Shown in pieces: positions 1,042 through 61,391 of a stretch of 64,000 bases of DNA (positions within the stretch are counted from its first letter, which is position 1; each line of letters begins with the position of its first letter). The notes under the pieces are model-generated. The model saw nothing but the letters and a program-made list of their open reading frames with translations, was not told the origin of the DNA and did no database searches. The translations under genes were made by a program, and so were the position numbers. Source of the stretch: an uncultured Anaerolineales bacterium (GTDB lineage Bacteria > Chloroflexota > Anaerolineae > CG2-30-64-16); the NCBI GenBank assembly GCA_964513075.1, contig CAZELR010000002.1, forward strand, positions 1,205 through 65,204. Reading direction: 5' to 3'.

Positions 1042-2826
1042 CTATCGGATGTGCCCAAGCGCATCCGATACTAGTGCTTCCGGTACTCCATCTACCATCT
1101 CGACCCGTCCGATATCGCGTATTACCACGAAGCGCAGGCTGCGGCCGCGGCGTTTCTTGTCCGTGCCCATCGCGGCCAGCGCTGCGTTCGGGTCGAAGGA
1201 GTAGCGGACCGGCAGGCCGTGGCGTTCGACCGCGCTGCGGATCTTTTCGGGCAGGTCAATCGCACACAGCCCCAGGCTCGCGCTGAGCTCGGCCGCGGCC
1301 ACCAGCCCCAGGCCCACCCCCTCGCCATGGCGCAGCGTGAACCCCGAGATGAGCTCCAGCGCGTGGCCGAAGGTGTGCCCCAGGTTCAGCCACGCCCGGT
1401 CGCCGGCCTCGAACGGGTCGCGTTCCACGATGTCAGCCTTGACCCGGACCGCGGCGGCGATCATGCTGACCATGTCGGGTGGCTTTGCGTGGTGCGTATT
1501 GTGGCGACCTGCGGGTCGTGATGCGTATTGCGTGTTGCGTGTTGCGTGTTGCGTCTCTTTTTCCGGACTCGGGGCTTCAGCCGGTTTCTCGGGGCAGCGG
1601 GAACAACCGGCTAAAGCCTCGATTCCGGTGTCCAGGCGGTCGAAGAGCTCCGGATCGCCGATGATGGCGGTCTTGATGATCTCGGCCATGCCGGAGCGCA
1701 ATTCGACGCCTGGCAGGGTGGCCAGCAGGTCGGGATCGATCAGCACCAACGCCGGCTGTTTGAACGCGCCGACCAGGTTCTTCCCCTCGGGCAGGTCCAC
1801 GCCCGTCTTGCCGCCCACACTGGAGTCCACCATCGCCAGCAGGCTGGTTGGGATCTGCACGAACGGCACGCCGCGCAGCCACGTGGCGGCCGTGAACCCT
1901 GCCATGTCACCGACCACGCCGCCGCCCAGCGCGATCACCGGCTCGTTGCGCGCCAACTTGGCGGCTGTCAGTTGGGCATACAGGCCGGCCATCGTGGCCA
2001 ACGTCTTGTGCTGCTCGCCGTCCGGAACCTCGCAGACCAGCGGCTCGAAGCCGGCCACGACAAGCGATGTGCGCAGCGTCTCCAGGTGATATTGTCCGAC
2101 CGTCGGGTTGGTGATCACCGCGCAGCGGCCCGGGGGCAGGCCGGCCTCGACGATGTGGCGTCCTGCTTGTCTTAGGACCCCGCCCGCGATGAGGACCGCG
2201 TAGCCAGACGAAGGACGAACGACGGACGACGAACGATGGATGACGGACGACGAATCGGCTCCTTCGTTCTTCGTCTTTCGTCTTTCGTCTCGTATGACGA
2301 GGCAGTGCCCGCCCTCGGGCAACCCCGCGACAATACCCAGCACCCGCTCGGCGGCCGCGGCGATGGTCAGGTTGCCGGTGTCCAGGTGATGCGGTATGGC
2401 GGCGTAGGCATCGGCGCGCTGCGCGAGGAGGGCCCGGATGCGCGCCAGGCGGTCGCCTCCGGCGAGCATGGGACGGCCGGCGTCATCTCCGACGCGGCGT
2501 AGGATCACCTCGGGCGCGGCGTCGAGGCAGATCACCGTGCCTCCAGCCGCCAGCGCCTCCCGGTTGGCCGGATCGATGGCCGCGCCCCCGCCCGTTGCCA
2601 CCACCAGCCCCTGCGGCGCGGCCAGCTCCCGGCAGACGGCGGCCTCCAGCGCCCGAAACGCATCTTCGCCGTCTTCGGCGAAGATGGCCGGGATCGGTTT
2701 GGCGGCGCGTTCTGCGATGACGTCATCGAGGCTCACAAACCGACGTCCCAGCCGCGCGGCCACGACAGGGCCGACGCTGGTCTTGCCGGTGCCCATGAAG
2801 CCGGTGAGGATGATATTTTGTGTCAT
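1042..2826 (-). CDS. aroB: Shikimate kinase fused to 3-dehydroquinate synthase (AroK-AroB, one continuous ORF)
   Basis: N-terminal GFMGTGKTSVG Walker A of shikimate kinase; downstream DHQ synthase motifs (GGGVVGDMAGF, SSVGGKTGVDL, LNLGHTFGHALE); real start MTQNIIL at 2826; the track ORF is extended through an upstream heptamer repeat; two repeat insertions are read in-frame. Confidence 0.8.
   Translation of the reverse strand: MTQNIILTGFMGTGKTSVGPVVAARLGRRFVSLDDVIAERAAKPIPAIFAEDGEDAFRALEAAVCRELAAPQGLVVATGGGAAIDPANREALAAGGTVICLDAAPEVILRRVGDDAGRPMLAGGDRLARIRALLAQRADAYAAIPHHLDTGNLTIAAAAERVLGIVAGLPEGGHCLVIRDERRKTKNEGADSSSVIHRSSSVVRPSSGYAVLIAGGVLRQAGRHIVEAGLPPGRCAVITNPTVGQYHLETLRTSLVVAGFEPLVCEVPDGEQHKTLATMAGLYAQLTAAKLARNEPVIALGGGVVGDMAGFTAATWLRGVPFVQIPTSLLAMVDSSVGGKTGVDLPEGKNLVGAFKQPALVLIDPDLLATLPGVELRSGMAEIIKTAIIGDPELFDRLDTGIEALAGCSRCPEKPAEAPSPEKETQHATRNTQYASRPAGRHNTHHAKPPDMVSMIAAAVRVKADIVERDPFEAGDRAWLNLGHTFGHALELISGFTLRHGEGVGLGLVAAAELSASLGLCAIDLPEKIRSAVERHGLPVRYSFDPNAALAAMGTDKKRRGRSLRFVVIRDIGRVEMVDGVPEALVSDALGHIR
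1487..1555. repeat. Degenerate heptamer tandem array (GTRYTGC units), family C
   Basis: gtgcgtattgtg...gtgatgcgtattgcgtgttgcgtgttgcgtgttgcgt; other arrays at 2843-2882, 6219-6275, 26107-26150 and 44551-44624. Confidence 0.7.
2205..2292. repeat. Imperfect hairpin repeat (GACGAAG units / CTTTCGT units), family A, copy 1
   Basis: Left arm of GACGAAC/GACGGAC units, right arm TTCGTCTTTCGTCTTTCGTC; second copy at 6755-6853. Confidence 0.7.
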
Positions 2827-2885: not shown

Positions 2886-4103
2886 TCATGTGTCGTAGCC
2901 GAAGTGCCACGGCGCGTTGTCCATGGGGAGATCCTCTAATCGGCTTTGGCGGAGCGCGGCAAAGCGCGGCAATTGCTCGGCCAGCGAATCGCCGCCGAGC
3001 TTGCGCATCAGCTCATCCGCCAGGACCCAGGCGACCATCGCCTCGCCGATGACGACGGCGCGCGGGACCGCGCAGAAGTCGGAGCGCTCGTAGCGGGTGG
3101 CCGCGGCCTCACCCGTGGCCAGGTCCACGGACCGCAGCGGCGTGAGGGTGGTGGCGATGGGCTTCATGGCCGCGCGGAGCACGATCGGCTCGCCGGTGGT
3201 GATGCCGCCCTCCAACCCGCCGGCGCGGTTGGAAGCGCGCCCTATCTCCCCCGTTCTCCCCTCTCCTCCGGAGAGGATAGGGGCCGGGGCTGGGGACCCT
3301 ATCTCGTCATGCACCTGCGTGCCGCGCAGCCGCGCGTTGGCGAACGCGGGCCCGATCTCCGCGCCCTTGACGGCCTGAATCGACACAATCGCCGCGACCA
3401 GTTTCGCGTCCAGTCTGCGGTCGAAGTGCACGTGGCTGCCCAGTCCCGGCGGTGCGCCCAGCGCTACCACCTCGAACACCCCGCCCAGCGTATCCTTGGC
3501 CTGCATCGTATCGGAAATGGCGCGGTGCATAGCGTCTGCGGCGGCAGGGTCGGGGCAGCGCACGTCGTTAGTCTCGGCCAGCGTGAAGCGGTCCTCGTAA
3601 GGCAGATCGTCCGGAATCTTCGCGTCCACTTCGCCGATGCTGGTGATGTAGCCGCCCACGGTGATGCCGAACTGGGCCAGGTATGTCTTGCAGATCGCGC
3701 CGACCGCCACGCGCATGGCCGTCTCTCTGGCGCTGGCGCGCTCCAACCCCGGCCGCAGGTCGCGGTAGCCGTACTTGATCGCCGCGGCCAGGTCTGCGTG
3801 GCCCGGCCGCGGGATCGTCATGGGCGGGATGTCTTTTTCGGCCCATGCCCTGTAGTCCAGGTTGGCTACTTCCAGGCCGATGGGCCCGCCGGTGGTGCGG
3901 CCGGCAGTTACGCCCGCGGTGATGCGAACTGCGTCTCGCTCGATCTTCATGCGGCCACCTGCGCCATAAGCGATCTGCCGTCGCGCCAGCTCCCGGTCGA
4001 TGTCTTCGGCCGCGAGCGGCAGCCCGGCGATTATCCCTTCCAGGATCGCGGTCAGCTTTGGGCCGTGGCTTTCACCGGCGGTAAGGAAACGCAATATAGC
4101 CAT
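2886..4103 (-). CDS. aroC: Chorismate synthase
   Basis: MAILRFLTAGESHG N-terminus and RASNRAGGLEGGITTGEP signature; carries an extra in-frame insert (GSPAPAPILSGGEGRTGEIG) encoded by a palindromic repeat. Confidence 0.9.
   Translation of the reverse strand: MAILRFLTAGESHGPKLTAILEGIIAGLPLAAEDIDRELARRQIAYGAGGRMKIERDAVRITAGVTAGRTTGGPIGLEVANLDYRAWAEKDIPPMTIPRPGHADLAAAIKYGYRDLRPGLERASARETAMRVAVGAICKTYLAQFGITVGGYITSIGEVDAKIPDDLPYEDRFTLAETNDVRCPDPAAADAMHRAISDTMQAKDTLGGVFEVVALGAPPGLGSHVHFDRRLDAKLVAAIVSIQAVKGAEIGPAFANARLRGTQVHDEIGSPAPAPILSGGEGRTGEIGRASNRAGGLEGGITTGEPIVLRAAMKPIATTLTPLRSVDLATGEAAATRYERSDFCAVPRAVVIGEAMVAWVLADELMRKLGGDSLAEQLPRFAALRQSRLEDLPMDNAPWHFGYDT
3239..3307. repeat. CCCTATCTCC / GGAGAGGATAGGGG palindromic mini-element inside aroC
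   Basis: Three copies of the ccctatctc core in inverted arrangement; translated in-frame. Confidence 0.6.
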
Positions 4104-4104: not shown

Positions 4105-5382
4105 CTACCCCAGCACCCGCACCAGGTGATACTGCTTCTTGCCCGTCCTCAAGACCACGTAGGCGCCTTCGATGACCTGCGCGATGGTGATAGCTCCCGA
4201 CGCGTCATCGACGCGCACGTTGTTGACGTAGGCGCCGCCCGAGGCGAGCAGCCGGCGCGCCTCGCCTTTGGACTTCACCGCGCCGGTCTCGACTAACAGG
4301 TCTACGAGCGGCTTGCCTTCTCCCTCGAACGCCGTCTTCGGCTGCTCGCTGGCCGGCACGTCGGCAAAGATGTCGGCGATGTCCGACGCAGCCAGGCCTT
4401 CGATGGCGCCGCCGAAGAGCACTTGCGATGCCTTTTCAGCGTCGGCTAAGGCTTGGTCGCCGTGCACCAGCCGCGTCACCTCGCGCGCCAAGGTTCGCTG
4501 CGCGTCCCGGCGTTCGGGATGTTCCCGCGTCGCGGCCTCTTGGGCGGCGATCTCATCCGCGGTCAGCCAGGTGAAGTAGCGCAGGAAGTTGACCGCATCG
4601 GTGTCAGGCTGGTTCAGCCAGAACTGGTAGAAGCGGTACGGCGAGGTGCGCTGGGGATCCAACCAGATGGCGCCCTGTACGGTCTTGCCCAGCTTAACCC
4701 CCTCGGCGCCGGTGACCAGGGGGTAAACCATGCCGTAAGCCCGGGCGCCTTTGACGCGGCGGATCAGCTCGACGCCCGCGGTGATGTTGCCCCACTGATC
4801 GCTGCCGCCGGCCTGCAGGGTGCAGCCGAAGCGCTCGTGCAACTGCAGGAAATCGTAGGCTTGCAGCAGCATGTAGCTGAACTCGGCGTACGAGATGCCG
4901 TCCTGCCGGTCGAGCCTTGATTTGACCGAGTCCTTGGCCATCATGTAGTTCACCGTGAAGTGCTTGCCCACGTCGCGCAGGAAGTGCATCATCGGGATGG
5001 TGGTCAGCCAGTCGGCGTTGTTCACGATGCGGGCAGGGTTAGTGCGGACTTCGAAATCGAGGAAGCGCGCCAACTGGCCGCGAATCGCCTCCACATTGAC
5101 TGCAATCGTCTCCAGGCTTTGCAATTGGCGCTCCTGGCTTTTGCCGCTAGGGTCGCCGATCATGCCAGTGCCGCCGCCCGCGAGTGCGATGGGGGTGTGT
5201 CCCGCGCGCTGCATGCGCGCCAGTCCCATCAGCGCCAGTAGATTCCCCACCTGGAGGCTGGTCGAGGTCGGGTCGAATCCGATGTAGGCGGTCACCTTTT
5301 CCTGGGCCAAGGTATCAGGCAAGCCTTCGGTGAAGTCATACACCAGGCCGCGCCAGTGGAACTCATCGAAAACGTTGGTCAT
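4105..5382 (-). CDS. tyrS: Tyrosyl-tRNA synthetase (class I, with C-terminal S4 domain)
   Basis: GFDPTSTSL...[22 protein letters not shown] core, KLGKT (KMSKS) motif and S4-like C-terminus; the HIGH motif reads QVGN; embedded in the aro operon with overlaps on both sides. Confidence 0.85.
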
Positions 5383-6283
5383 TTGCTTCTAGCTCCTTTC
5401 TCATCAGTCGGGCAAGACTGCCCGCATCGATTCCTGTCCACAATGCTGCCGCTTGCGCGCCCTGGTGCACCAGCATCCCCAGCCCATCGATGGCTGTGGC
5501 GCCTTGCGACCGGGCCAGCGCCAGCAGCGCGGTGGGCCGGTGATAGATCAGATCGTACACCACCTGGTCCGACCGGAACGCCGCATCCGGCTCCCACGGC
5601 AGCGCATCCCCTGCGTGTAACCCTAAACTGGTCGCGTTGACGATCAGGTCGGCCCAAGGCGCCAGCTTCGGCAAGGCGCCGGGAAACGCATGTGCGCTCA
5701 GCCGGTCAGTCGCATCGGGCAGGGCCGCGCACATTGCTCGACATAATCTATCAGCATGCTCCGGCGTCCGGTTGGCGACGGCCACCTCCGCACCGGCCTC
5801 CAGCAGCGCATAGGCCACCGAGCGTGCCGCGCCGCCAGCGCCGAGGACGATGGCTCGGCGACTTCGCACCCCATGCGCCTGTAAATCCGCCATGAATCCC
5901 GCGCCGTCGGTGTTGTCGCCCAACAGTGAGCCATCGGCCCGCACGATAAGGGTGTTCACAGCCCCCGCCGCCTGCGCCATCGGCGTCAGTTCGTCTAGGA
6001 AGGGCATGACCGCCTGCTTGTGCGGCACGGTAACATTGGCTCCTGCGAAGCCAAGCGCAGCCAGCCCGGCCACAGCCTCGCCCACGCGTTCCGGCGCCAC
6101 CGGCAGCGGCACATAGACCCAATCCAGTCCTAGCGCCGCATACGCCGCGTTGTGCATCGCCGGGCTCAGGCTGTGGTCCACCGGCCAGCCGAGCAGGCCG
6201 ACCAGGCGGGTTGCGCCCGTGATGCGTGATGCGTGATGCGTGGTGCGTGGTGCGTATTGCGTATTGCGTACTGCTTTAGTCAT
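5363..6283 (-). CDS. aroE: Shikimate dehydrogenase
   Basis: [12 protein letters not shown] and GDNTDGAGF motifs plus an NAD(P) Rossmann fold ([15 protein letters not shown]); the ATG at 6283 overlaps the aroA stop (ATGA); the first ~24 aa are encoded by a heptamer repeat array. Confidence 0.85.
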
Positions 6284-7710
6284 TCGTCCATCGCTGATTC
6301 GTCACTCGCCCACTCGATTTCCGCCCCCAGGGACCTCATCGTCTCCACGAAGCTCGGGAACGAGTCACCGATTGCTTCGGCCCCCCGGACGGTGGTCTGA
6401 CCGCCTGCAACCAGGCCGGCCACCGCGAGGGCCATGGCCAGGCGATGGTCATGGTGGCATTTTACCACAGCACCTCTCAGTTGGGTGGGTCCGGTCACAA
6501 TCATGCCGTCCGGTCGTTCCTCGATAGTCGCGCCCATCTTCCGTAGCTCTGTCGCGACCGAAGCAATGCGGTCCGACTCCTTAACTCGCAGCTCACCGGC
6601 CTCGCGCACGACTGTTACGCCCTCCGCCTGCGTCGCGGCTACGGCGAAGATCGGGAACTCGTCGATCGCACGCACGATCAGGTCGCCGGCGGCTTCTGTG
6701 GCGCGCAGGGCGGCGCCCTGAACGGTGATGTCGGCGATCGGTTCGCCTGTCGCGGATGAAGGACGAAGGACGGACGACGAAGGACGAAGGACGGATGACA
6801 AGGTGCTTTCCTGCGGGTCGGCGCTTTCGTCTTTCGTCTTTTGTCTTTCGTCAGTCACGCACATCTTTGCTCCCATCGCCGCCAGCAGATCATACAGCCC
6901 CGTGCGAGTGGGATTGACGCCGACGCCGGGCAGCCGGATCTCTGAGCCCGGCACGATCGCGGCCGCGACCAGTGGAAACGCGGCGGAGGAGAAATCGGCG
7001 GGGATAGTGATGCCGTCGAGAGGCGCGCGCAATGCTTGCCCGCCGCGCAAGCGAACGGTCAGCTCTTGGGACTCGACGGCCACACCGAAGTCGCGTAGCA
7101 TGCGTTCGGTGTGATCGCGCGATGGTCCCGGCTCGTGAAGGATCGTCTCACCTTCAGCGAACAAGCCCGCCAGCAGGATGGCCGACTTGACCTGAGCACT
7201 GGCGACCGGCAGGCGGTAATCGATGCCCCGCAGGTTGCCGCCCTGGATAGTGAGCGGCGGCAGCCGGCCGCCGTCGCGGCCCAGCACCGTCGCGCCCATC
7301 AGCCGCAGCGGCTCGGCGACCCGGCCCATGGGGCGGCGGCGCAGCGGCTCGGTTCCGGTCAGCACGCTGGTGAACGGCTGCCCTGCCAGGAGCCCGGCCA
7401 GCAGCCGGATGGTAGTGCCCGAGCCGGCGCAGTGCAAAACGTCCTCCGGTTCGGTCAAGCCGTGCAGGCCGCGGCCGCGGATGAGCAGATCGGAGCCGAA
7501 ACCTGTCTTCTGGTCGTCAATGCTCACTCCGAGGGCCTGCATACAGCGCAGCGTCGCCATGCACACCTCCGCCGGCACCCAGCCGCGGATGCGCGTCTCG
7601 CCGTCGGCCAACGCGGCCAGGATGATTGCCCGGTGGGTGATCGATTTGTCGCCCGGCACGGTGGCTTGTCCGCGTAACGGGCCGGAAGGGTGGATGATCA
7701 GGTCTCGCAT
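6280..7710 (-). CDS. aroA: 3-phosphoshikimate 1-carboxyvinyltransferase (EPSP synthase)
   Basis: MRDLIIHPSGPLRGQATVPGDKSITHRA matches the AroA N-terminus; start chosen at ATG 7710, although the track ORF extends to 7770 through a GTTGAAT repeat; contains an in-frame hairpin-repeat insertion. Confidence 0.85.
   Translation of the reverse strand: MRDLIIHPSGPLRGQATVPGDKSITHRAIILAALADGETRIRGWVPAEVCMATLRCMQALGVSIDDQKTGFGSDLLIRGRGLHGLTEPEDVLHCAGSGTTIRLLAGLLAGQPFTSVLTGTEPLRRRPMGRVAEPLRLMGATVLGRDGGRLPPLTIQGGNLRGIDYRLPVASAQVKSAILLAGLFAEGETILHEPGPSRDHTERMLRDFGVAVESQELTVRLRGGQALRAPLDGITIPADFSSAAFPLVAAAIVPGSEIRLPGVGVNPTRTGLYDLLAAMGAKMCVTDERQKTKDESADPQESTLSSVLRPSSSVLRPSSATGEPIADITVQGAALRATEAAGDLIVRAIDEFPIFAVAATQAEGVTVVREAGELRVKESDRIASVATELRKMGATIEERPDGMIVTGPTQLRGAVVKCHHDHRLAMALAVAGLVAGGQTTVRGAEAIGDSFPSFVETMRSLGAEIEWASDESAMDE
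6755..6853. repeat. Family A hairpin repeat, copy 2 (inside aroA)
   Basis: gaaggacgaaggacggacgacgaaggacgaagg ... ctttcgtctttcgtcttttgtctttcgtc. Confidence 0.7.
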
Positions 7711-7726
7711 GGTGAGTACCGTATGT

Positions 7727-8605
7727 TCAATGTTGAATGTTGAGTGTCGAACGTTGAATGCGGTGATCATGGGCGCGCGTCAGGGTTGTCCGCAGTGTGG
7801 GCTCGTCCTCTGCTGCCAGTGATTCACGCAAGCCTGCGAGCTGCGCCGCATAGGCGTCCAGCCAGTCCAGCACGGCCGAACGATTGGTCAGCAGGATGTC
7901 CAGCATCATGTCCACGTCGCTGGCGGCCAGGCGGGTGGTGTCGCGGTAGCCGGATGCTGCCAGCGACCGGGCTAACGGATCATCGGCGGTCGAGACGGTG
8001 TTGACCAGCGCGGCCGCGACCGCGTACGGCAGATGACTGATGGCTGCCACGGCCCGATCGTGCGCGGCCGGGTGCAGGATGACCGGCCGTGCACCGACCG
8101 CCTCTACTAACGCGCGGGCCTGGGCCAGCGCAGCGCCCGATGTCCGCGACAGGGGACAGAGAACAAAGGTCTTGTTGCGGTAGAGCCCCGCCTCAGCCGC
8201 CGCGAACCCGGCTAGCTCCTTGCCGCACATGGGATGTCCGCCCACAGGCTGCAATTCTGGGGGCAGGTTTGCTAGCGCCGCACAAATCTCGACTTTGGTG
8301 CTGCCCAGGTCGAGCACCAGCGCGCCGGGCCTGGCGGCGCGGCCCACCTCCGGCAGTTGGCGCAGGATCGTGCGGGCCGGCGTGGCGAGCACGATCACAT
8401 CAGCGTCTGCCGCGCCCTCAGCCAGGTCGGTCGTGCCAAAATCAATTGCGCCGGCCTCAAGCGCCGCGCCGAGCGTCTCTTGCCTGCGCGCGACGCCGAC
8501 GATGCGTTGAACGCCGTCCCCGGAACCTTCAGCCTCCCGCAGCGCCAGCGCCAGCGATCCCCCCATCAGTCCAAGCCCCACGATGCACACAGTCGGCAAG
8601 TTCAT
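7727..8605 (-). CDS. tyrA: Prephenate/arogenate dehydrogenase
   Basis: N-terminal Rossmann fold IVGLGLMGGSLALAL; TyrA-family length and layout; lies in the aro operon between the DAHP synthase and aroA. Confidence 0.8.
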   Translation of the reverse strand: MNLPTVCIVGLGLMGGSLALALREAEGSGDGVQRIVGVARRQETLGAALEAGAIDFGTTDLAEGAADADVIVLATPARTILRQLPEVGRAARPGALVLDLGSTKVEICAALANLPPELQPVGGHPMCGKELAGFAAAEAGLYRNKTFVLCPLSRTSGAALAQARALVEAVGARPVILHPAAHDRAVAAISHLPYAVAAALVNTVSTADDPLARSLAASGYRDTTRLAASDVDMMLDILLTNRSAVLDWLDAYAAQLAGLRESLAAEDEPTLRTTLTRAHDHRIQRSTLNIQH

Positions 8606-8702
8606 TATTTCCGCCTCACAAGGTTTCCCCCTGGCTCGGTCAGAGACCGGCCAGAGCGAACTGCTCCCCTGCTCCCTTTCTCCCCTGCTCCCCCGCTCCC
8701 CC

Positions 8703-9716
8703 TCACAACGTCCTTCCCACCGCCGGCGCCAGCATGCGCAGCTCGCGCACCAGCTCGGCGAAGCGTTCCGGCTTCAGCGATTGAGCGCCGTCTGAGAGCG
8801 CCTGCGCCGGATGCGGGTGCACCTCGATGATCAAACCGTCGGCACCGGCCGCAATGCAGGCCTTGGACGTGGGTGGGATCAGTTCCCATTTGCCTGTGGC
8901 GTGACTCGGATCCGCAAAGACCGGCAGGTGCGTCCACTGCTTGAACAGCGCGATGGCGTTGATGTCCAGCGTGTTGCGCGTGGCGGTCTCGAAGGTGCGG
9001 ACGCCGCGTTCGCACAGCATGACGTTGCGGTTGCCTCCGCTGAGGATGTACTCTGCCGACATCAACGTCTCCTGGATGGTGCCCATCATGCTGCGCTTCA
9101 GGAACGCCGGCGTGCGTGTCTTGCCGATAGCTGCCAACAGCGGAAAGTTCTGCGCGTTGCGGGCGCCGATCTGAAAGATATCGGTGTATTTCCCGACCAG
9201 CGGCACGGCCTCAGGAGACATCACCTCGGTGATGATGGGCAACCCGGTGGCTTCGCGCGCTTCGGCCAGGATCTCCAGGCCCTCTTCACCCAGCCCTTGA
9301 AACGCGTAGGGCGATGAACGGGGCTTGAACGCACCGCCGCGCAAGATGTCGGCGCCGGCCTCCTTCACCGCATACGCGGTCTCCAGAAGTTGGCTTTTGC
9401 TTTCCACCGAACAGGGCCCCGCCATGATGACCAATCGAGGGCCGCCGATCGTGACCCCGCGCACGTCGAAGACGGTGTCATCCGGGTGAAAGTCGCGGCT
9501 TGCCAGCTTGAACGGCTGCAGGATGCGTACAACCTGCTCGACGCCGGCGAGCATCTCGAAGTTGTGTGATTGGATGGGCCGGTCGTCGCCGACCACGCCG
9601 ATGATCGTGCGCTCGGTGCCCTGGGACAGATGCGCGTGGTAGCCAAATGCCTCTACCTGTGTTACTACGGCATCGATGTCGCTCGCCGTAGCGCCGTGTC
9701 TCATAACGATAATCAT
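8703..9716 (-). CDS. 3-deoxy-7-phosphoheptulonate (DAHP) synthase, type I-beta with N-terminal ferredoxin/ACT-like regulatory domain
   Basis: Collinear with the Thermotoga-type DAH7PS: [10 protein letters not shown]...GPCSVES...[13 protein letters not shown]...IGARNAQNF...DPSHATG. Confidence 0.9.
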
Positions 9717-9728
9717 ACGGAACCTCCC

Positions 9729-10973
9729 CTACTCCGCCGCCGGATAGCTTCCCAGCAACTTCAGAAACGCTGTGCGGGTCAACAGGCCCAGCAGTGCCCG
9801 ATTAACGGTGGCATCCTGCCAGTGGCCTTCCATATCGACATAAAATACATAGTGCCACGGCCGGTTGCGCCGCGGCCGGCTTTCGATCTTAGTCAGATTG
9901 ATCCCCCGGTTGGCGAATTCGCCCATGACGTTGTACAACGCGCCAGGCGTGTGCATGGTGGCGAATACGATGGAGGTCTTGTTGTGTTTAGCAGGCGGCG
10001 GCTCCTCACGTCCCAGCAGGAAGAAGCGGGTCGTGTTGTCGGGTGAGTCTTCGATGCCTGCGTCCAGGATCGTCAGCCCATAAGTCTGACCGGCCAGCGC
10101 GCTGGCGATGGCAGCCGTGCCGGGCGCCGGGTTCCGGGCCAGCTCAGCCGCGGCGCCGGCCGTGTCATAGGCCGGCACCGCCTCCCAGCCGCGCAGGCGC
10201 AGATAGCGGCTGCACTGCGCCAGCGCCTGGGGGTGTGAGTGGACGCGGCGGATATCTGTCTGCTGGGTGCCCTCGGGCGCCAGCAGGCAGTGGCGCACCC
10301 GCAGCTTCACCTCGCCCACCACGCGCAGGTCGTGATCCAGCAGCAGATCGTAAGCTTGGTTGATGGAGCCTGCCTGTGAGTTTTCAACTGGGAGCAGCCC
10401 CAGGGCCGCCCGGCCCTCCTCCACTGCAGTGAAGATGTCGCCAAAGCCGGGACAGGCCAGGGTTGCGGTCTGTGCGCCCAGGTGTTGAAAGATCGCTTCT
10501 TGCGAGTAAGCGCCCGGCTCGCCCTGGAAGGCGACCACCTGGCGACCCTGACCGAGTGCTGAGCCGTTCTTGTGCGATTCCGGGGGTTCTGCCGGTGGGG
10601 GTGCAGCGAACTCGCCTTGCAGGTCCGGCCGCAGCACAACGGCGTCACGCAGGTAGATGTGACGGACATCGTAGATTGGGCGCTCGGTATTCCAGTGCAG
10701 CAGGATCCGGATGGTGCGGGGCAGTCCGCCGGGCGTCGCGATCTCCACGGCGTCGAGCAACGGCACGTGGTGCCAGCCCAGCTCGCGTGCAGCCCGTGCC
10801 GGGAACGCGGCGTCCAGATCCGGCGTCATTGTGAAGGTGGCGCTGGCCAGGTCTTCCACCTGGATACTGTTTGCCGCGACCAGCGCGGTCAGTAGTTCCC
10901 GGGTGACGTCCAGGATGGCTTGGGACGTGTTTTCGGTTGCAGTTGTGGCGCCGCGGACACCTCTAACGGGCAT
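9729..10973 (-). CDS. pheA: Chorismate mutase (AroH class) fused to prephenate dehydratase and ACT domain
   Basis: N-terminus [11 protein letters not shown]...MTPDL...[14 protein letters not shown] resembles B. subtilis AroH; followed by a PDT domain ([14 protein letters not shown]) and a C-terminal ACT; true start is ATG 10973 with GAAGGAGG upstream; the track start at 11021 lies inside a terminator hairpin. Confidence 0.85.
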
Positions 10974-11265: not shown

Positions 11266-12144
11266 TCAGTTAGCAGCCTCGATCTCGTGCAGGATGGTCT
11301 CCAGGTCGTCCCGGTTGAACTCGTAGCGCGCATAACAGAAGTGGCAGTCCACGGTGGCCTCGCCCTCGATCAGCAGCGCCAGGATGTCATCGTAGTCCAG
11401 CATCTTCAGCGCCTGGCGCGAGCGTTCCCGACTGCACGAACAGCGGAACGCCAGCGGCTCGGATTCCAATACCTCATACTCGATCCCAGTGAAGGACCTC
11501 GCCAGGATATCTTCCGGAGTCAGACCGCCGGTCAGCAGCGTCTCCAGGGATGGCAGCCCTTCTATGTTGGCTGCCAGGCGTGCGAACTCTGCGGGGCTGT
11601 GGCCGGGCATGGCCTGGATAAGCAAGCCGCCGGCCGCGGCTATGCTCCCGCCGTCCATTTGAACGCCGATCTGAGCGAGCGAGGGTACCTGCTCGGAGGT
11701 GTTGAAGTAGTGCGTCAGCTCTTTATCCAGCTCGCCGTTCTCCAGCTCCACCACGCTGCTGTAGAGGCTCTTGATGCGCAGGTCCTTCACCACGGTCAAC
11801 TGGCCCGTGCTGCCGATTGCTGCGGCCACCGCCGCGCGGTCTATGGTTTGTGGCGCCGCGATATCGGGGACAGCCACATAACCCCGCACGCGGCCGTACG
11901 CGTCGGCCTCGATCACCACCTTGCCCAGCGGGCCGTTTCCCTCGACCTTCAGGGCGACGCGCTCCTGAACCTTCAGAAGCCCGCCCAACAGCGCGCCGGC
12001 GGTCAGGCCATAGCCCAGCGCGGCTGCCGCGACCGGGTAAGCCGCGTGGCGCTGGGCCGCTTCCTGGGCCAGGCCGGTGGTGATGCAGGCGAGCCCGCGC
12101 ACGCCCGCCTGTTTGGCAATGGCTCGTACCATCGTATCGCTCAT
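11266..12144 (-). CDS. hslO: Hsp33 redox-regulated chaperone
   Basis: Hsp33 fold with C-terminal zinc centre CSCSRE...CHFC. Confidence 0.9.
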   Translation of the reverse strand: MSDTMVRAIAKQAGVRGLACITTGLAQEAAQRHAAYPVAAAALGYGLTAGALLGGLLKVQERVALKVEGNGPLGKVVIEADAYGRVRGYVAVPDIAAPQTIDRAAVAAAIGSTGQLTVVKDLRIKSLYSSVVELENGELDKELTHYFNTSEQVPSLAQIGVQMDGGSIAAAGGLLIQAMPGHSPAEFARLAANIEGLPSLETLLTGGLTPEDILARSFTGIEYEVLESEPLAFRCSCSRERSRQALKMLDYDDILALLIEGEATVDCHFCYARYEFNRDDLETILHEIEAAN

Positions 12145-12171
12145 GTTACTCCCAACACCCCCTATTTCGGT

Positions 12172-13587
12172 TTAGGCGTCGTAATACAACGTAAACTCGT
12201 ACGGATGCGGCCGCATGCGGACCGGATCCACCTCGGTCTCGCGCTTGTACGCGATGTAGACATCCAACATCTCGGTAGTGAAGACGTCGCCCTTCAGCAG
12301 AAACTCGTGATCTGCTTCCAGCGCCTTGAGCACTGCATCCAGCGAGCCCGGCACCTGCTTGACACGCCTGGCTTCTTCCGGCGGCAGGCCGTAGAGATCC
12401 TTGTCCATCGGCTCTCCGGGGTCGATGCGGTTCTGGATGCCATCCAGCCCAGCCATCAACAGCGCGGCAAAGCAAAGGTATGGATTGCACGAGGGGTCGG
12501 GCGCCCGAAACTCGACGCGCTTGGCAGCGGCGCTTTTGGAGCCAACCGGAATGCGGCAGACTGCGGAGCGGTTGCGCTGCGAGTAGGCCAGGTTGACCGG
12601 CGCCTCGAAACCGGGGACCAGGCGGCGATACGAATTGGTGCCGGGGGCAGCCAGGGCCAGCAGCGCCGGCGCGTGCTTCAGCAGCCCGCCGATGTAGTAC
12701 TTGGCCGTATCCGAAAGCTGCGCGTAACCGGCCTCGTCGTAGAATGCGTTCTTGCCGTTTTTCCAGATGCTCTGGTGGCAGTGCATGCCGCTGCCGTTGT
12801 CGCCGAACAACGGTTTCGGCATGAAGGTGGCGGTCAGGCCGTTCTGCCTGGCCACGTTCTTCACCATGTATTTGTAGATCTGAACGTTGTCGGCCATGTT
12901 CATCAACGTGTTGAAGCGCATGCCGATCTCGCACTGGCCGGCTGAAGCAACTTCGTGGTGATGGATTTCGACCGGGATGCCGGCGCCCTCGATAGCCAGC
13001 ACCATCTTACTGCGCACATCCTGCAGCGTGTCCGTGGGCGGGGTGGGGAAGTAACCTCGCTTGGCCGCGATCTGGCCGCCGAAGTTCGGCCCCAGCTCCT
13101 TGCCGCTGTTCCACCACCCCTCGCGGCTGTCCAGGTGATAGAACGCTTCGTTGGTGTTGCTGCCGTAACGTACGTCACTAAAGATGAAAAATTCAGGTTC
13201 GGGACCGATGTAGATCGTGTCGCCGATGCCGGTCTGCTTCAGATAGGTCTCAGCCCGGTGGGCGATGAAGCGCGGGTCGCGCTCGTACGGCTCGCGGGTG
13301 ATCGGATCGTAGACGTTCCCGATCATTACCAGGGTAGGCACTTCGAAGATCGGGTCAATGAACGCGGTGGTGGGGTCCAGCATCAGCAGCATGTCCGACT
13401 CGTGGATTTCTTTGAATCCGCGGATCGATGAGCCATCGAACGGCACGCCATTCTCGAACGTCTCTTCCGTCAGGATATGCGCGGGGATGGTGAAATGCTG
13501 CCAGACGCCGGGCAGGTCGGTGAAGCGGAGGTCCACCATCTGGACCTTTGCCGCCATGGTCAGTACGTCAGCGATGGTCTTAGGCAT
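12172..13587 (-). CDS. glnA: Glutamine synthetase type I
   Basis: GS-I motifs ([30 protein letters not shown], adenylylation-region NPY); start MPKTIADVL at 13587 with GGAAGGAG RBS; the track ORF is over-extended to 14007. Confidence 0.9.
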
Positions 13588-13615
13588 GGCAATGAATGCT
13601 CCTTCCAAGAAAAAT

Positions 13616-13646
13616 AAAGGTGGCATCTCGCCGAGATGCCACCTTT
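13616..13646 (-). terminator. Intrinsic-terminator-like hairpin in the glnA 5' leader
   Basis: 14-bp perfect stem aaaggtggcatctc / gagatgccaccttt with a 3-nt loop, followed on the minus strand by ATTTTTCTT, 28 nt before the glnA ATG. Confidence 0.55.
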
Positions 13647-13717
13647 GCACCGCACACAGGATAGTATAACGGAAGATTGGGAAGGTGTCCAGTCCCCAAA
13701 TGGGTAGTATTTGGAGC

Positions 13718-14266
13718 TTAATCGCACTGGTTCGTGCCGGCGGCAGCCTGCACCTTGAGCACGGTGGCCCAGTTGCGCGTGGTGGCTGCATCGGCGGTGA
13801 CGCGCGAAAACGCTTGGGCGAGCCTGGACTCGATGACCCCATTGGCGCACCAGAGGTAGGCTGCCTTTGCGCCCACGGCCAGCGCATCCGGCGCCCAGGC
13901 CTCCGCCAGCAACGGCCTGGTCTTTTCCAGCGTGGCTGCGCTGGCCACAAACGCGACAAGGAACTTCGACGGATCGGCAGTCGCTTGGGGCAGCGGATTC
14001 TCTGCAATGATGGCGTTCAACTCCCGCACCGTGACGACAACGACCGGCACGGAGAATCCGAACTTGCTTTGGATGGCCGCCTCGATTGCTGACGCAACCT
14101 CGGCTACGTCCGGCTGTGATGCCTGGAACACGGCGTTTCCGCTGTTGAGCAAGGTGCGGACTTCCCCAAAGCCGACCTCTTCAATGAGCGCGCGCAACTC
14201 GGCCATCGCGACGCGCTTTGCGCGGCCTACGTTGACGCCACGGAGGAGTGCAACACACTGGGTCAT
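13718..14266 (-). CDS. DUF1697 family protein
   Basis: LLRGVNVG N-terminal signature typical of DUF1697. Confidence 0.65.
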
Positions 14267-15018
14267 GTGTCCTGATTGAAATTGAATTTGCCGTAGACGG
14301 ACACGCAGTTGCTGCTGGTAGCTGTGAACGGTTCTCGGTCCCAGCCGGCCCAGCGCTCCTTCAGGCGCAGCCCTGCAATGCGCGCCATCAGATCGAGCTC
14401 GGCTGGCCAGGCGTAGCGCGTGACGATTGGGTTGAGACGGATGCCCGTGCTCGACAGGAACACGTGAGTTTCTTCGAGCCGTTGGCTCACCGGATCGTAG
14501 CGAGCCACGTCAAGTCGTACGCTGTCGACTTCGATGGCTTCTGCATCGACGTATTGGTTATTGCGTAAGAGGTGCCACTCGGTCGGCACCCCGCCCTCCA
14601 CGACGAACAAGCCGTCGTCAGTGAGATGTGCGGCGACGTTCTCGAAGCAACGAACCTGCTCGTCTTGGGTCAGCAGGTTGAACAGGGTGTTGAAGACCAC
14701 GTAAATCAAGCGATAGGCGCCGGGGACCGCAACATCGGCGAAGTTGCCCAGGGTGACCGCGATCCCGGCGCCCCCCGGCTTCGCGCGCAACCTGGCGACC
14801 ATCGCAGATGAAAAGTCAATGCCGTCGACGCGGATGCCCCGAGCGGCCAGGGGCAATGCGATCCGGCCGGTGCCGATCGCAAGTTCCAGCGCGGGACCGC
14901 CCCGTGCCAACTGCTCCAGGAATGCGACGGTTGCCATCTCATCCCCGCGTTGGGCGAGGCGGTCGTAGGCCTCGGCGACGTCGTCGTCGAAGCTCATGGC
15001 TGGCTCGTATTTTTCCAT
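14263..15018 (-). CDS. Class I SAM-dependent methyltransferase
   Basis: Motif I LELAIGTGRIALPLA with a downstream acidic residue; start MEKYEP at 15018; the stop overlaps the DUF1697 start. Confidence 0.75.
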   Translation of the reverse strand: MEKYEPAMSFDDDVAEAYDRLAQRGDEMATVAFLEQLARGGPALELAIGTGRIALPLAARGIRVDGIDFSSAMVARLRAKPGGAGIAVTLGNFADVAVPGAYRLIYVVFNTLFNLLTQDEQVRCFENVAAHLTDDGLFVVEGGVPTEWHLLRNNQYVDAEAIEVDSVRLDVARYDPVSQRLEETHVFLSSTGIRLNPIVTRYAWPAELDLMARIAGLRLKERWAGWDREPFTATSSNCVSVYGKFNFNQDT

Positions 15019-15147
15019 ATGACAGTCTCCTACTGGTCGGGTCATTATCGCACTGCGCGCCGGGTAGGTCAAGCCAGATGCGTAACCGGCGTTGATGAGG
15101 TATAATGCTGCGCGTTTAGATCCACTGCACGCCAGCGAAGGGATCGA

Positions 15148-15897
15148 ATGCATCCCCACTACACCTATCCCTGGCGAACCATGCTTGTCCTGTGCCGGCA
15201 GGTCCTGACCGGCGGACGGCGCTCGTTTCGAGCGGACGCCCGCGCGTGTCTTGACCGGTTGGCGCCGCCGTTGCAGGTCTATGGGGCAGAGCATATCCCT
15301 GTCTGCGGCCCTGCGTTGATCACCGTCAACCACTATTGCCGGCCAGGTTTCAACGCCTGGTGGATCGCTCTTGCCATTGCCTCGGTCGCACCCGAAGAGA
15401 TGCACTGGACCATGACCGGCGAACTGACCTTCCCCGGTAAGTGGTATGCCGGGCTGGGCGGCGCCGGCTCATGCTGGCTGTTGGGGCGGCTGGCACGCGT
15501 CTATGGCTTCACGGCCATGCCGCCCATGCCACCGCGGCCGGGCGATGCGGCAGCGCGCGGGCTGGCCGTGCGCCGCGTGCTGAGCTACGCCCGCGAGCAT
15601 CCCGCCGCGCTCATCGGGCTGGCGCCGGAAGGCATGGACATGCCCGGCGGCGTGCTGGGCTGGCCGCCGGAGGGGGCCGGCCGCTTCATCGCGCTGCTGG
15701 CTGGCATGGGGTTTTGCGTGACGCCTGTGGGGGCCTACGAGCAGGATGGCGCGTTCCGCCTTCATTTCGGCCCTCCCTACACGCTGCGCCTGCCCACAGG
15801 ACTCTCTGCTGAAGAAAAGGACCGCTCTGCGGCGCAGGTCGTCATGGCGGCCATCGCCCGCCTGCTCCCACTGCCAATGAGAGGAGAATTCGCATGA
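15148..15897 (+). CDS. Hypothetical protein, possible acyltransferase-like
   Basis: 249-aa ORF whose stop overlaps the next ATG (ATGA); only weak resemblance to lysophospholipid acyltransferases, with no clear HxxxxD motif. Confidence 0.45.
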   Translation: MHPHYTYPWRTMLVLCRQVLTGGRRSFRADARACLDRLAPPLQVYGAEHIPVCGPALITVNHYCRPGFNAWWIALAIASVAPEEMHWTMTGELTFPGKWYAGLGGAGSCWLLGRLARVYGFTAMPPMPPRPGDAAARGLAVRRVLSYAREHPAALIGLAPEGMDMPGGVLGWPPEGAGRFIALLAGMGFCVTPVGAYEQDGAFRLHFGPPYTLRLPTGLSAEEKDRSAAQVVMAAIARLLPLPMRGEFA

Positions 15898-17132
15898 AAC
15901 AGGATCTTTCGTTGGGCCGGCTGTTGGCCCCGAACGCCTACTGGGTGGGGCTGTCCTTCATGTGGAACGTGCTGCACCCCATCGTGCTGCCCGCGGTGAT
16001 GCTCAACTTTGTGCCGGACGCGCAGAAGAACACCTACCTCGGCCTGCTGACCTTCGCCGGGTTGGTGATCGCGATGGTTGTCCAGCCGATCTCCGGCGCG
16101 CTGAGCGACGGCTGGGTCTCGCGCTTCGGCCGCCGCCGGCCGCTGATCGTGTTCGGCACGTTGTTCGACTTTGTCTTCCTTGCGCTGCTGGCCTGGGCAG
16201 GAGGCCTGGTGTGGCTGTTCGTCGGCTACATCGGCCTGCAGTTCAGCTCCAACATCGCCCACGGTCCCGCGCAAGGGTTGCTGCCCGACGTGGTGCCTGC
16301 GCAACAGATCGGCACGGCGAGCGGACTGAAGATCTTCCTGGATATGTTCATGACCGCGGTGGCCACGCTTGCGGCGGGCTTCCTGCTTGACCCGGACACC
16401 CGCGACCCATCCCTGGTGATGGGGTTGGTGATGGGCTTGCTGTTTGTGTCGACCCTGGTCACGGTGTTGGGCACGCGCGAAGCGCCGGCCGGCGACCCGG
16501 CGGCTCGACGCCTGGCCTGGGCGAACCTGCGCAACCAGTTCCACATCGATTTTCGCCGTCACTCGGCCTACTGGTGGCTGATCGCCCAGCGCTTCGTGTG
16601 CCTGCTCGGCATCTATGGCATCCAGCAGTTTGCCCAGTATTACATCCAGGACGTGCTGCGGCCGGCGAACCCCGTCCGCGACACCGGCGTGCTCATGGCA
16701 GCGATCATTTTTGCGCTGCTGATCCTGGCGGTGATCGGCGGCAGACTGACCGACCGCTTTGGTGCGCGGCGCGTTACCACCGCGGCGGTGTTGGTTATTG
16801 CAGTGGGTTGTCCGCTGCTTCTGTTGGGGCGTAACTTGCTGAGCCTGGGGCTGTACGGCGGCGTGCTGGGCGCGGGGATGGGGTTGTTCCTGACGGCCAA
16901 CTGGGCGCAGGCCAACAGGCTGGCTCCGGTTGCCGAGGCGGGCAAGTACCTGGGCCTGACCAACATAGCCACGGCCGGCGCGGGCGCGCTCGCGCGGCTG
17001 GAAGGGCCCGTCATCGACGCGCTGAACAATGCCCGGCCCGGCGCGTGGCTCGGCTATACCGCCCTGTTCTTCTTCGGTGCCGTCTGTGCCCTGGCCAGCC
17101 TGCCGCTGCTGAAGAAGGCGGAACAGGGTTGA
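15894..17132 (+). CDS. MFS transporter
   Basis: 412 aa with 12 predicted TM segments; MFS motif GxLSDxxGRRRP-like (GALSDGWVSRFGRRRP). Confidence 0.8.
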   Translation: MKQDLSLGRLLAPNAYWVGLSFMWNVLHPIVLPAVMLNFVPDAQKNTYLGLLTFAGLVIAMVVQPISGALSDGWVSRFGRRRPLIVFGTLFDFVFLALLAWAGGLVWLFVGYIGLQFSSNIAHGPAQGLLPDVVPAQQIGTASGLKIFLDMFMTAVATLAAGFLLDPDTRDPSLVMGLVMGLLFVSTLVTVLGTREAPAGDPAARRLAWANLRNQFHIDFRRHSAYWWLIAQRFVCLLGIYGIQQFAQYYIQDVLRPANPVRDTGVLMAAIIFALLILAVIGGRLTDRFGARRVTTAAVLVIAVGCPLLLLGRNLLSLGLYGGVLGAGMGLFLTANWAQANRLAPVAEAGKYLGLTNIATAGAGALARLEGPVIDALNNARPGAWLGYTALFFFGAVCALASLPLLKKAEQG

Positions 17133-17144
17133 GGTTAATTTGAT

Positions 17145-17189
17145 GGAATCGAGGCTTCAGCCGGTCTGACCGCCTAAAGGCTCGATTCC
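17145..17189. repeat. Hairpin element ggaatcgaggctt...aaggctcgattcc, family D
   Basis: A related copy (ggcttcagccgg ... ccggctaaagcctcgattcc) sits at 1571-1630 inside aroB. Confidence 0.6.
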
Positions 17190-17210
17190 TTCATAAGGAG
17201 GCATGAAACG

Positions 17211-23964: not shown

Positions 23965-23988
23965 GCTTTAATTCCAGTCACAAACCCT

Positions 23989-24033
23989 CGTTTTCCAAAC
24001 CAGGTTTCGCCGAGAAACCTGGTTTGGAAAACG
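23989..24033. repeat. REP-like perfect 20-bp palindrome with 5-nt loop
   Basis: cgttttccaaaccaggtttc-gccga-gaaacctggtttggaaaacg; related core aaacc(a/c)gg(a/t)ttc in the 29448-29486 palindrome. Confidence 0.7.
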
Positions 24034-24037
24034 AGAT

Positions 24038-26786: not shown

Positions 26787-26810
26787 AGCGTATTCCTGGT
26801 CAGTGTGCCT

Positions 26811-26845
26811 CAAGTTTGGCATCCCTCGCAGGGATGCCAAACTTG
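26811..26845. repeat. Perfect 15-bp palindrome with 5-nt loop between ccmH and ccmG
   Basis: caagtttggcatccc-tcgca-gggatgccaaacttg; no flanking U-tract on either strand. Confidence 0.65.
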
Positions 26846-26851
26846 AGTTGC

Positions 26852-29441: not shown

Positions 29442-29447
29442 TCACCT

Positions 29448-29486
29448 ATCAGAAACCCGGATTCAGGGAGAATCCGGGTTTCTGAT
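29448..29486. repeat. REP-like perfect 17-bp palindrome with 5-nt loop between convergent genes
   Basis: atcagaaacccggattc-aggga-gaatccgggtttctgat. Confidence 0.7.
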
Positions 29487-29511
29487 ATGCATGGTTTCGG
29501 TTGGCGTCTTG

Positions 29512-32366: not shown

Positions 32367-32798
32367 GGAGCGAGGCGCCCGGGGTGTCTTGCCTCTTCTC
32401 TGAGGTTTGCGCCCTGAAAAAAGTTGTGCTAGGATAACCCAGCAGAACCCTGCCGTGCTCGTGATGTTCCAACAGCGTTTTGAGCCAACATGAATACAAA
32501 GGGAGCTGGACATCCCGGCCGGAGATGCAATAGCTGCGCACGCCGCTTCGTGTGACGTGCGTCTTAGCAAAGCAGAACTGACCGGCAAGGCACCCACCTG
32601 CGAAAGCAGGTTCAAAACAGTCGAGCACACGGCACAGCGGGGGACTCAGAATATAAACGGCCATTTGGGAATGCCCAGATGGCCGTTTTGAGTTTTGTAA
32701 AACCCTTGACATAGCCTCTCGGATTGTGCTATTCTTGATCCAACAGCCGTCCGTGCTGGTGCCGACCGGCCGATTCCTAGTCTTAATCGAGGAACCCT

Positions 32799-44483: not shown

Positions 44484-44550
44484 GCATCACGCACCACGAG
44501 ATTCTTCGCCCTGCGGCCATCTGCGGATGGTCGGCGCTCAGAATGACATG

Positions 44551-44624
44551 CACTACGCACCGCGCACCACGCAATACGCAGTACGCAATACGCAGTACGC
44601 AATACGCAGTACGCAATACGCTAC
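44551..44624. repeat. Heptamer/14-mer tandem array (ACGCAATACGCAGT x3-4), family C
   Basis: Intergenic between the DUF4037-like gene and mmdB. Confidence 0.7.
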
Positions 44625-45775: not shown

Positions 45776-45783
45776 GGCGCCCC

Positions 45784-48316: not shown

Positions 48317-48402
48317 GGAGAGGTCGCATAGTTGGCCTAGTGCGCGCGTCTCGAAAACGCGTATCCCGGAAGGGATCGTGGGTTCGAATCCCACCCTCTC
48401 CG
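48317..48402 (+). tRNA. tRNA-Ser (anticodon CGA)
   Basis: Cloverleaf with GGAGAGG/CCTCTCC acceptor stem, anticodon loop CTCGAAA, long variable arm, GTGGGTTCGAATCCCAC T-arm. Confidence 0.85.
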
Positions 48403-48604: not shown

Positions 48605-48694
48605 GGAGAGGTCGCATAGCTTGGCCTAGTGCGCACGACTGGAAATCGTGTATCCCGAAAGGGATCGAGGGTTCAAATCCCTCCCTCTCCGCCA
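48605..48694 (+). tRNA. tRNA-Ser (anticodon GGA), CCA encoded
   Basis: Same acceptor stem, anticodon loop CTGGAAA, long variable arm, GAGGGTTCAAATCCCTC T-arm, 3' GCCA; TTATAAT about 12 nt upstream. Confidence 0.85.
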
Positions 48695-61317: not shown

Positions 61318-61391
61318 TGTATTCTATAAACGTTATTCGGCGGCATAAGTTCCGGGCTATCCTGTAGGGGCGAGGTCACCTTGTCCCTACA

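Follow-up and report, generated by a model that had tools for sequence, protein, structure and literature searches.

Introduction

Palindromic repeats carried in frame by protein-coding genes have been described in Rickettsia, where the Rickettsia palindromic elements (RPEs) are selfish palindromes found in housekeeping genes (Ogata et al. 2000, as reviewed in PMC10969869). Repeats of the REP and REPIN type, including the CGTC-tagged REPs, also occur inside coding regions, and the CGTC REPs are without an identified dedicated transposase (PMC3733652; PMC3116915). The subject of this report is a hairpin-forming repeat at positions 2207-2289 of a 64-kb stretch of the genome of an uncultured Anaerolineales bacterium (contig CAZELR010000002.1). 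This whole stretch, hereafter the window, is the basis of all within-window counts. The hairpin lies on the minus strand in a fused aroK-aroB gene, between the parts encoding shikimate kinase and 3-dehydroquinate (DHQ) synthase, and belongs to a widespread, dispersed group of repeats, termed family A, whose unit is the heptamer GACGAAN and which are scattered through housekeeping proteins of Anaerolineae-type Chloroflexota. It is very probably a tolerated, selfish, RPE-like repeat that resides in frame in a linker older than itself, within a gene whose fusion is ancient.

Heptamer arrays form another group of repeats to which family A can be compared. Cyanobacteria reportedly contain arrays of heptamer direct repeats, the STRR, an observation credited to Mazel et al. 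in 1990. Arrays of the heptamer TAACTGA are found in Beggiatoaceae, cyanobacteria and Bacteroidetes; in BOGUAY there are 169 direct sets versus one indirect (PMC4679880).

A Hairpin Between Two Enzyme Domains

The host open reading frame (ORF) occupies 1042-2826 on the minus strand and encodes 594 residues from an ATG at 2826, with the stop codon at 1042-1044. Its product is a 100% match to database protein P0001, whose start is placed 21 codons further upstream and reads through an ACGCAAT array. Pfam recognizes three domains in this single ORF, SKI (residues 11-162, 4e-39), DHQ_synthase (265-377, 2e-46) and DHQS_C (446-558, 4e-35), that is, an N-terminal shikimate kinase and a C-terminal DHQ synthase in one polypeptide. 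The kinase domain corresponds to 2341-2796 (minus strand) and has high per-residue confidence (pLDDT). The DHQ synthase part (residues 209-594; 1045-2202, minus strand) begins with a first strand at E209-213 and is broken by a second insertion; by Pfam, the DHQS/Fe-ADH fold spans residues ~213 to 558. An AlphaFold2 model based on an alignment of 24 homologues (predicted template modelling score, pTM, 0.83) is confident for both folds, and pLDDT falls below 50 only at residues 182-205 and 404-449. The first of these segments corresponds to window positions 2212-2283, which is the hairpin, and for the inserted peptide of ~25 residues, flanked by two well-folded domains, disorder is predicted. 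A preliminary description of this DNA had placed a hairpin repeat at the kinase/synthase junction (as 2205-2292) and had taken it as the linker of the AroK and AroB domains. The repeat is indeed there, with limits 2207-2289 and in a minus-strand gene; the Pfam limits and pLDDT agree with the linker position, and the peptide quoted at the time is the exact ORF translation.

The limits of the element come from repeat, folding and alignment evidence. Read in the sense of the gene (2289 to 2207), it consists of GACGAAA GACGAAA GACGAAG AACGAAG GAGCCGA TTCGTCG TCCGTCA TCCATCG TTCGTCG TCCGTCG TTCGTCC TTCGTC. Its two arms are thus inverted arrays of the heptamer GACGAAN, with (GACGAAR)x4 in the 5' arm (~2262-2289), a degenerate (NTTCGTC)n in the 3' arm (~2207-2254) and a unique sequence at the centre. 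Tandem Repeats Finder detects period-7 arrays on both sides (2207-2254 and 2270-2290). The predicted fold of this strand (-41.6 kcal/mol, z = -2.4 versus dinucleotide shuffles) is a long hairpin in which 6-bp blocks are parted by single mismatches. The element codes for ~DERRKTKNEGADSSSVIHRSSSVVRPS, and the in-frame translation between the two enzyme domains contains ...RDERRKTKNEGADSSSVIHRSSSVVRPSSG...; an example of a peptide that spans the element is TKNEGADSSSVIHR. The flanking sequence shows no direct repeat around this copy. No Rfam family reached threshold at the hairpins, and a promoter/terminator scan gave no terminator-like or promoter-like site at 2207-2289. A general repeat search missed the family-A hairpins because its seeds are broken every 7 nt.

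The window holds a second family-A hairpin, at 6755-6852 (minus strand), which is in frame with aroA (EPSP synthase), within a surface loop, and encodes TDERQKTKDESADPQESTLSSVLRPSSSVLRPSS. It has period-7 arrays at 6754-6793 and 6824-6852 (Tandem Repeats Finder) and a predicted fold of -38.9 kcal/mol (z = -2.8). With up to two mismatches allowed, GACGAAAGACGAA has 18 matches in the window versus 0.83 expected; 15 of them are inside the two elements and three elsewhere. The aroA copy had been described as near-identical (6755-6853). It is of the same family, yet it differs from the aroK-aroB copy by a 16-nt indel and in its centre, and the identity of the two is 85% when gapped columns are left aside and 71% when every column counts. 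In the metagenomic EPSP synthase L101, the same loop also holds a family-A element.

Architecture of Family A

A metagenome scan with the pattern GACGAARGACGAA-N8-38-TTCGTCYTTCGTC recovered at least 127 family-A elements on at least 120 contigs. Among the matches listed, the 125 distinct elements have 125 distinct centres. Elements have a median length of 62 nt (5th-95th percentile, 44-84 nt), and an arm contains 2-7 units, most often 4. In the 485 units whose sequence the search pattern did not dictate, the seventh base has an entropy of 1.85 bit versus 0.33-0.90 bit at the six core positions, the latter values being biased downward by the limit of two mismatches for calling a unit. The composition at the seventh base is G 39%, A 33%, C 14% and T 13%, and most adjacent units differ there. 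Neither a flank consensus nor a target-site duplication was found; in 122 elements no base exceeds ~40% at any of 12 positions per flank. No insertion sequence with GACGAA-type ends was seen within the window.

The two arms of an element appear to be composed separately. The seventh base is not mirrored between them (Fisher p = 1; diagonal 0.28 versus 0.27 expected), and folding is no weaker when arm halves are exchanged among elements (-11.7 versus -11.4 kcal/mol, p = 0.52). The hairpin therefore does not stem from copying of one arm or from compensatory evolution; it follows from two arrays of one core that are composed independently and oppositely oriented. A few seemingly perfect palindromes (L123, L126, L147 and L148) had pointed to fold-back copying or compensatory selection, which were rejected on the same two tests.

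Some metagenomic family-A hairpins are nested with another family in that they enclose a GGTTGAA/TTCAACC hairpin (L123, 1249-1301; L190, 1071-1123; L153). L153 also has two identical family-A copies (5714-5761 and 5956-6003), 242 nt apart in one interdomain linker.

Coding Compatibility

All six frames are free of stop codons in arrays of GACGAAG, GACGAAA or GACGAAC and in their complements. With GACGAAT a TGA arises, and T is the least common seventh base. Three units add up to 21 nt or seven codons, so that every frame yields the same cyclic peptide (DEGRRTK-like for the 5' arm, LRPSSFV-like for the 3' arm) and only a length divisible by three is needed. Since the element has inverted symmetry, both orientations are equivalent as well. 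As a result, DE(G/R)R(R/K)T(K/N)... followed by ...SS(F/V)V(L/I)RPSS is found in aroK-aroB, in aroA and in relatives.

Among ten long ORFs that span metagenomic elements, Pfam identifies seven recognizable proteins, each with the element in a domain loop or an interdomain linker. The hosts are a penicillin-binding protein (PBP) transpeptidase, a histidine-kinase HATPase_c, DUF2298, an ABC-F linker, a DUF4147/MOFRL linker (two copies), a Fer4/CCG linker and EPSP synthase. A palindromic repeat that is in frame and stop-free is thus present in coding genes of seven unrelated protein families. Of the 43 elements flanked on one strand by coding-like sequence, 24 keep the phase, versus one third expected, a comparison in which co-directional neighbouring genes mimic out-of-frame cases. 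Lengths divisible by three are not enriched (34 of 122 maximal elements), with the element boundaries imprecise and many copies intergenic.

Repeated Use of the Same Sites

Linker DNA was compared in eight relatives (L082-L089). L082 and L084 have GACGAAR hairpins like that of the window. Elsewhere the same spot holds a GATGAAG...CTTCATC hairpin (L085), a GATTGCG...CGCAATC hairpin (L086), direct GGCCCATC octamers followed by GCGCAAT units (L087) or a degenerate GACGACC-type hairpin (L083); L088 and L089 have no repeat. At the protein level, at least seven types of repeat-derived peptide occur in the aroK-aroB linker of relatives: DEGRTTNDE...SSFVLRPSS; ...IADS...QSAIRNPQSAI; NTQYAIRNTQH; HLVTLSPCHPVTLSP; ESANQRISESA; GEWEKG...SPTLPLSRS; and DDRRPTT...SSRSAVRGP. 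These types are interleaved on the tree, even among the nearest relatives of the window.

Other sites behave in the same way. The interdomain site of DHQ synthase also has varied repeats at one spot, with family-A units there in L085. The aroA loop is short in L089 and holds unrelated repeats in other relatives. In the aroC-aroK spacer, ACGCAAT units in the window contrast with GACGAAR units at the equivalent place in L082. The most economical interpretation is that insertions arrive in high flux and are filtered by selection, with copies retained at permissive sites alone. Relatives would then carry other repeat families at the same place because of survivorship at such sites. Active replacement of one repeat by another at a site is possible.

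The variety of hairpins at one position bears on whether the hairpin itself is selected, as a DNA or mRNA structure at a domain boundary that would provide a pause for AroK folding, stabilize the mRNA or serve as a processing site. In relatives a hairpin persists as its sequence changes (types A, G and D, with GATGAAG paired to CTTCATC in L085), stable hairpins are predicted at both domain boundaries of the AroK-AroB protein, and several metagenomic copies lie in interdomain linkers. However, the permissiveness of linkers predicts the same positions, copies are also found within domains and in intergenic DNA, the basal relatives have no hairpin and L087 has direct arrays at the site instead of one. 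With no element-specific covariation between arms and only modest z-scores (-2.4 and -2.8), such selection is improbable.

Ordinary linker drift or a local slippage expansion, unrelated to the copies elsewhere, has still less in its favour. Linkers do evolve fast, and slippage can lengthen period-7 arrays (Mrazek and co-workers, as summarised in PMC4679880); the seventh base is shared by neighbouring units slightly above chance. Nevertheless, the same core in the same inverted arrangement recurs in the window aroA and in unrelated metagenome contexts (at least 120), neighbouring units mostly differ at the seventh base, and de novo slippage yields no inverted arm. The preliminary description had held that fused relatives with a non-repetitive linker would imply ordinary drift. 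Such relatives exist, but drift does not follow from them, because closer relatives carry heptamer or octamer DNA repeats of several families at the site. Drift or slippage as the whole explanation is thus very unlikely.

Age of the Fusion

Two histories had been proposed for the gene: either the fusion is ancestral and the element entered its linker, or a stop-free element joined two genes into one frame. Relatives were compared for separate aroK and aroB, as had been suggested, and all of the best 120 homologues have AroK and AroB in one chain (Anaerolineae/Chloroflexi metagenome-assembled genome, MAG, proteins with 55-75% identity). Their linkers were extracted and ordered on a neighbour-joining tree of conserved columns. 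The basal proteins have a non-repetitive linker of 6-14 residues (RVPVRTPEGG, RLVIHGPAGSGMLP, RLILGD), of the plain type ...PVRTPEG(G/Q)YD.... Single open frames with the short motif are found in Caldilineaceae, another Anaerolineae MAG and Thermoflexales (...PVHTPEGQYD, ...PVREPGGSYD and ...AVRHPAGQYD), and one open frame likewise spans the Methylomirabilales, Chloroflexia, Thermogemmatispora and Dehalococcoidia loci, making seven other Chloroflexota lineages in all. The fusion is therefore common to relatives and no local accident. Since the best 120 homologues are all fused and the basal ones have a plain linker, the fusion is, judged from these proteins, much older than any repeat at the site, in keeping with the first of the two histories.

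In many bacteria aroK and aroB are adjacent but separate genes, the arrangement from which the second history would start, with an inserted stop-free repeat merging the two frames. Several non-Chloroflexota loci have no single open frame across the match, and heptamer arrays of a similar kind are present in intercistronic spacers of the source genome (e.g., 2840-2881). Set against the plain-linker fusions of basal members and other Chloroflexota classes and the fused state of all 120 nearest homologues, these points leave that history a very slight chance, and it was rejected. That the insertion is an assembly artefact (a chimeric or collapsed repeat in what is evidently a MAG, P0001 being from an NCBI contig of 164 kb and repeats being assembly-prone) can practically be dismissed, since frame and both domains are kept across it and homologous in-frame elements occur at the same site in independent assemblies (NCBI, ENA, JGI, Logan).

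An internal aroB start within the element was also considered and rejected. The sequence contains no in-frame ATG, GTG or TTG inside the element, so AroB is not made separately from a start there. Ribosomal bypass or excision, in the style of T4 gene 60 or mitochondrial 'byp', was judged unnecessary, the copy being in frame and stop-free.

Origin and Persistence of the Element

A tolerated selfish repeat in an old linker would have arisen as follows. A dispersed repeat of non-coding origin, made of two inverted heptamer arrays (a GACGAA core plus one almost free base) round a unique centre, would have landed in the existing aroK-aroB linker, possibly replacing that linker (put at 4-8 codons). 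The insertion would persist as the site is among the few permissive ones.

Several points weigh against this account. Only 51% of 126 elements lie in a frame with 40 or more open codons to either side, versus 68% of random positions in the same contigs; placement deep in ORFs is thus rarer than random, and most family-A copies are probably intergenic or at gene ends. The core entropies are, as noted above, biased downward. Adjacent units share the seventh base at 0.43 versus 0.35 expected (0 of 2000 permutations reach it), and some local slippage does occur. Finally, translation through the element is suggested by the open frame and the continuity of the domains, and the effect on the enzyme is presumed to be neutral or nearly so.

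The arms may have been assembled unit by unit, with no cut-and-paste of a master copy, for example through repair or recombination at hairpin-induced breaks or through repeat-adding synthesis. This is put forward tentatively. Unique centres, arms that are unmirrored at the variable base and the lack of a target-site duplication argue against master-copy transposition; independent arms, a free seventh base and turnover at the same site are not what it predicts. A more far-reaching version, which is doubtful, holds that family A belongs to an undescribed class of repeats in Anaerolineae-type Chloroflexota that are built in place unit by unit and not transposed as units. They could be built by a template-jumping polymerase or a reverse transcriptase that adds repeats to the two 3' ends of a break, or else by ectopic repair of hairpin-induced breaks. 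Permissive linkers, loops and intercistronic spacers would then be continually overwritten by whichever heptamer family is active in the lineage. If true, this would amount to a novel way for essential genes to gain sequence. Family A as a whole is of more interest than the single aroK-aroB copy.

Other Repeats in the Window

The second in-frame insertion in aroK-aroB (1480-1617, minus strand) separates the N and C domains of DHQ synthase and corresponds to residues 404-449, with pLDDT <50. It consists of a hairpin of another family (GGAATCGAGGCTTTAGCCGG...CCGGCTGAAGCCCCGAGTCCGG) and a direct ACGCAAY heptamer array (1517-1554). The folded stretch of the hairpin, 1556-1630, has a predicted energy of -40.7 kcal/mol (z = -6.4), and the hairpin is read as GIEALAGCSRCPEKPAEAPSPEK. 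A peptide of the form GIEAxAG..P..PAEAS.P is present at the same site in many relatives, and a related hairpin is found in the intergenic gap 17138-17196 (z = -5.5).

Four in-frame heptamer or octamer insertions (~58737-58838, 59043-59137, 59506-59560 and 59728-59873) are carried by a class-A PBP ORF (58465-61323, minus strand). One of them is a GAAGGTT/AACCTTC hairpin (z = -7.1), and its GAAGGTT arm has variant units exactly where TGA stops would arise. Period-8 arrays are seen at 8661-8701, 21489-21522 and 59095-59137 (CTGCTCCC, CTCCCCTG and GCTCCCCT); peptides matching such arrays, GEWEKGRRGEGE...SPTLPLSRS, occur in the aroK-aroB linker of relatives. There are also perfect inverted repeats of 18-22 bp with 3-5-nt loops (23987-24035, 26809-26847 and 29447-29487), two of the GAAACCNGGTTTC type. 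The peptide EKPGF/SQKPGFL in the aroA of relatives (alignment columns 85-100) looks like an in-frame member of the GAAACCNGGTTTC-type inverted-repeat family. In chorismate synthase (3236-3306, minus strand), an extra segment, PAPAPILSGGEGRTGEIG, derives from a G/C-rich imperfect palindrome, CCCTATCTCCCCC...GGGGAGATAGGG, with a z of only -1.2.

Direct arrays oriented with the genes (ACGCAAT/ACGCAGT and TCAACAT) are found at 2840-2881, 6218-6274, 7723-7760 and 44548-44621, where they adjoin or cross the annotated starts of aroK, aroE, aroA and a gene at 44621-45805. The first, of ACGCAAT type on the minus strand, occupies the aroC-aroK intercistronic spacer directly upstream of the aroK start. 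In database proteins P0001, P0004, P0006, P0009, P0010 and P0017 such arrays are read as N-terminal extensions (e.g., QPSTFNLQPST), which are probably mis-called starts. The aroA ORF (6280-7770, minus strand) likewise crosses a TCAACAT heptamer array in its first 20 codons, and its true start is probably M21, near 7710.

Between aroE and aroC lies tyrS (tyrosyl-tRNA synthetase; 4105-5382, minus strand), an arrangement kept in L082, L083, L085 and L087. In L085 the shikimate operon is interrupted at 6095-6741, 9413-10004 and 11929-16435; the inserts between aro genes are a PIN/antitoxin-like pair, a nucleotidyltransferase pair and a methyltransferase-containing block. At the Rfam gathering threshold the window contains 6S RNA (32444-32647), large signal recognition particle RNA (50654-50918) and tRNAs at 48317-48402 and 48605-48691.

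Comparison with Known Systems

As a bifunctional enzyme, the window protein resembles other AroK-AroB proteins in having both Pfam domains and in an operon context kept with aroC, aroE, aroA, aroQ and tyrS. It differs from ordinary fusions by ~70 extra residues in two repeat-derived disordered segments. For annotation this matters in that repeat-derived N-terminal extensions and disordered insertions of 20-45 residues inflate the lengths of MAG proteins, and the insertions can be mistaken for lineage-specific linkers or fusions. For protein evolution, the repeats mark permissive sites of conserved enzymes and supply raw disordered sequence.

RPEs are, by analogy, the closest functional analogue of family A. 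Both are palindromic and lie in frame in unrelated housekeeping genes, with an added peptide that is compatible with the fold of the host protein. RPEs, however, form families of ~100-150 bp with a conserved full-length consensus and peptide, whereas family A shares only a 6-nt core in inverted arrays. No full-length consensus is common to its copies (125 of 125 centres distinct, window copies 71% identical), centres are unique, length is variable (median 62 nt) and the host is Chloroflexota instead of Rickettsia. [quoted passage not shown]

REPs are likewise short, dispersed, hairpin-forming repeats, some of them intragenic and in frame, and CGTC is contained in every 3'-arm unit of family A (CTTCGTC). 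A REP has a single stem of 20-40 bp, a defined loop and one unpaired tag; family A has 6-bp blocks with an unconstrained base every 7 nt. The REP/REPIN architecture is therefore absent from elements of 44-84 nt with segmented 6-bp helices and variable loops, in which CGTC is internal to the units and not a terminal tag. PARCELs are coding repeats too, and the dyad symmetry of their DNA makes either orientation translatable. Each is a protein-domain repeat of 25 residues in a surface or membrane ORF, unlike short insertions into enzymes.

With the heptamer simple sequence repeats (SSRs), family A shares tandem head-to-tail 7-nt units, a period of 7 and the presence of several families per genome. 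Heptamer arrays are often directly upstream of start codons, and the ACGCAAT, TCAACAT and GAAGGTT arrays of the window are placed in this way, as in filamentous bacteria. The known arrays are almost exclusively direct and intergenic, in contrast to the inverted pair of family A, which is often intragenic; ACGCAAT and other families of the window fit the direct, intergenic pattern. TAACTGA also has stops in its forward frames, whereas family A is stop-free in all six. A literature search on heptamer repeats in Chloroflexota/Anaerolineae found no report, which, coverage being incomplete, is absence of evidence only.

Because the RPE consensus, the MITE target-site duplication, the REP stem and tag, and the orientation and location of heptamer SSRs are all lacking, family A has been filed as a new variant alongside these four systems, a full member of none. 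A 7-nt unit that is open in six frames is able to enter any gene, in any frame or orientation. Family A also offers a concrete handle on the origin of the heptamer repeats of filamentous bacteria, unexplained since the discovery of STRR. Rickettsia is the best-known setting for selfish DNA within coding genes, and the present repeats show it at work, at scale and in an unusual form, in free-living Chloroflexota too.

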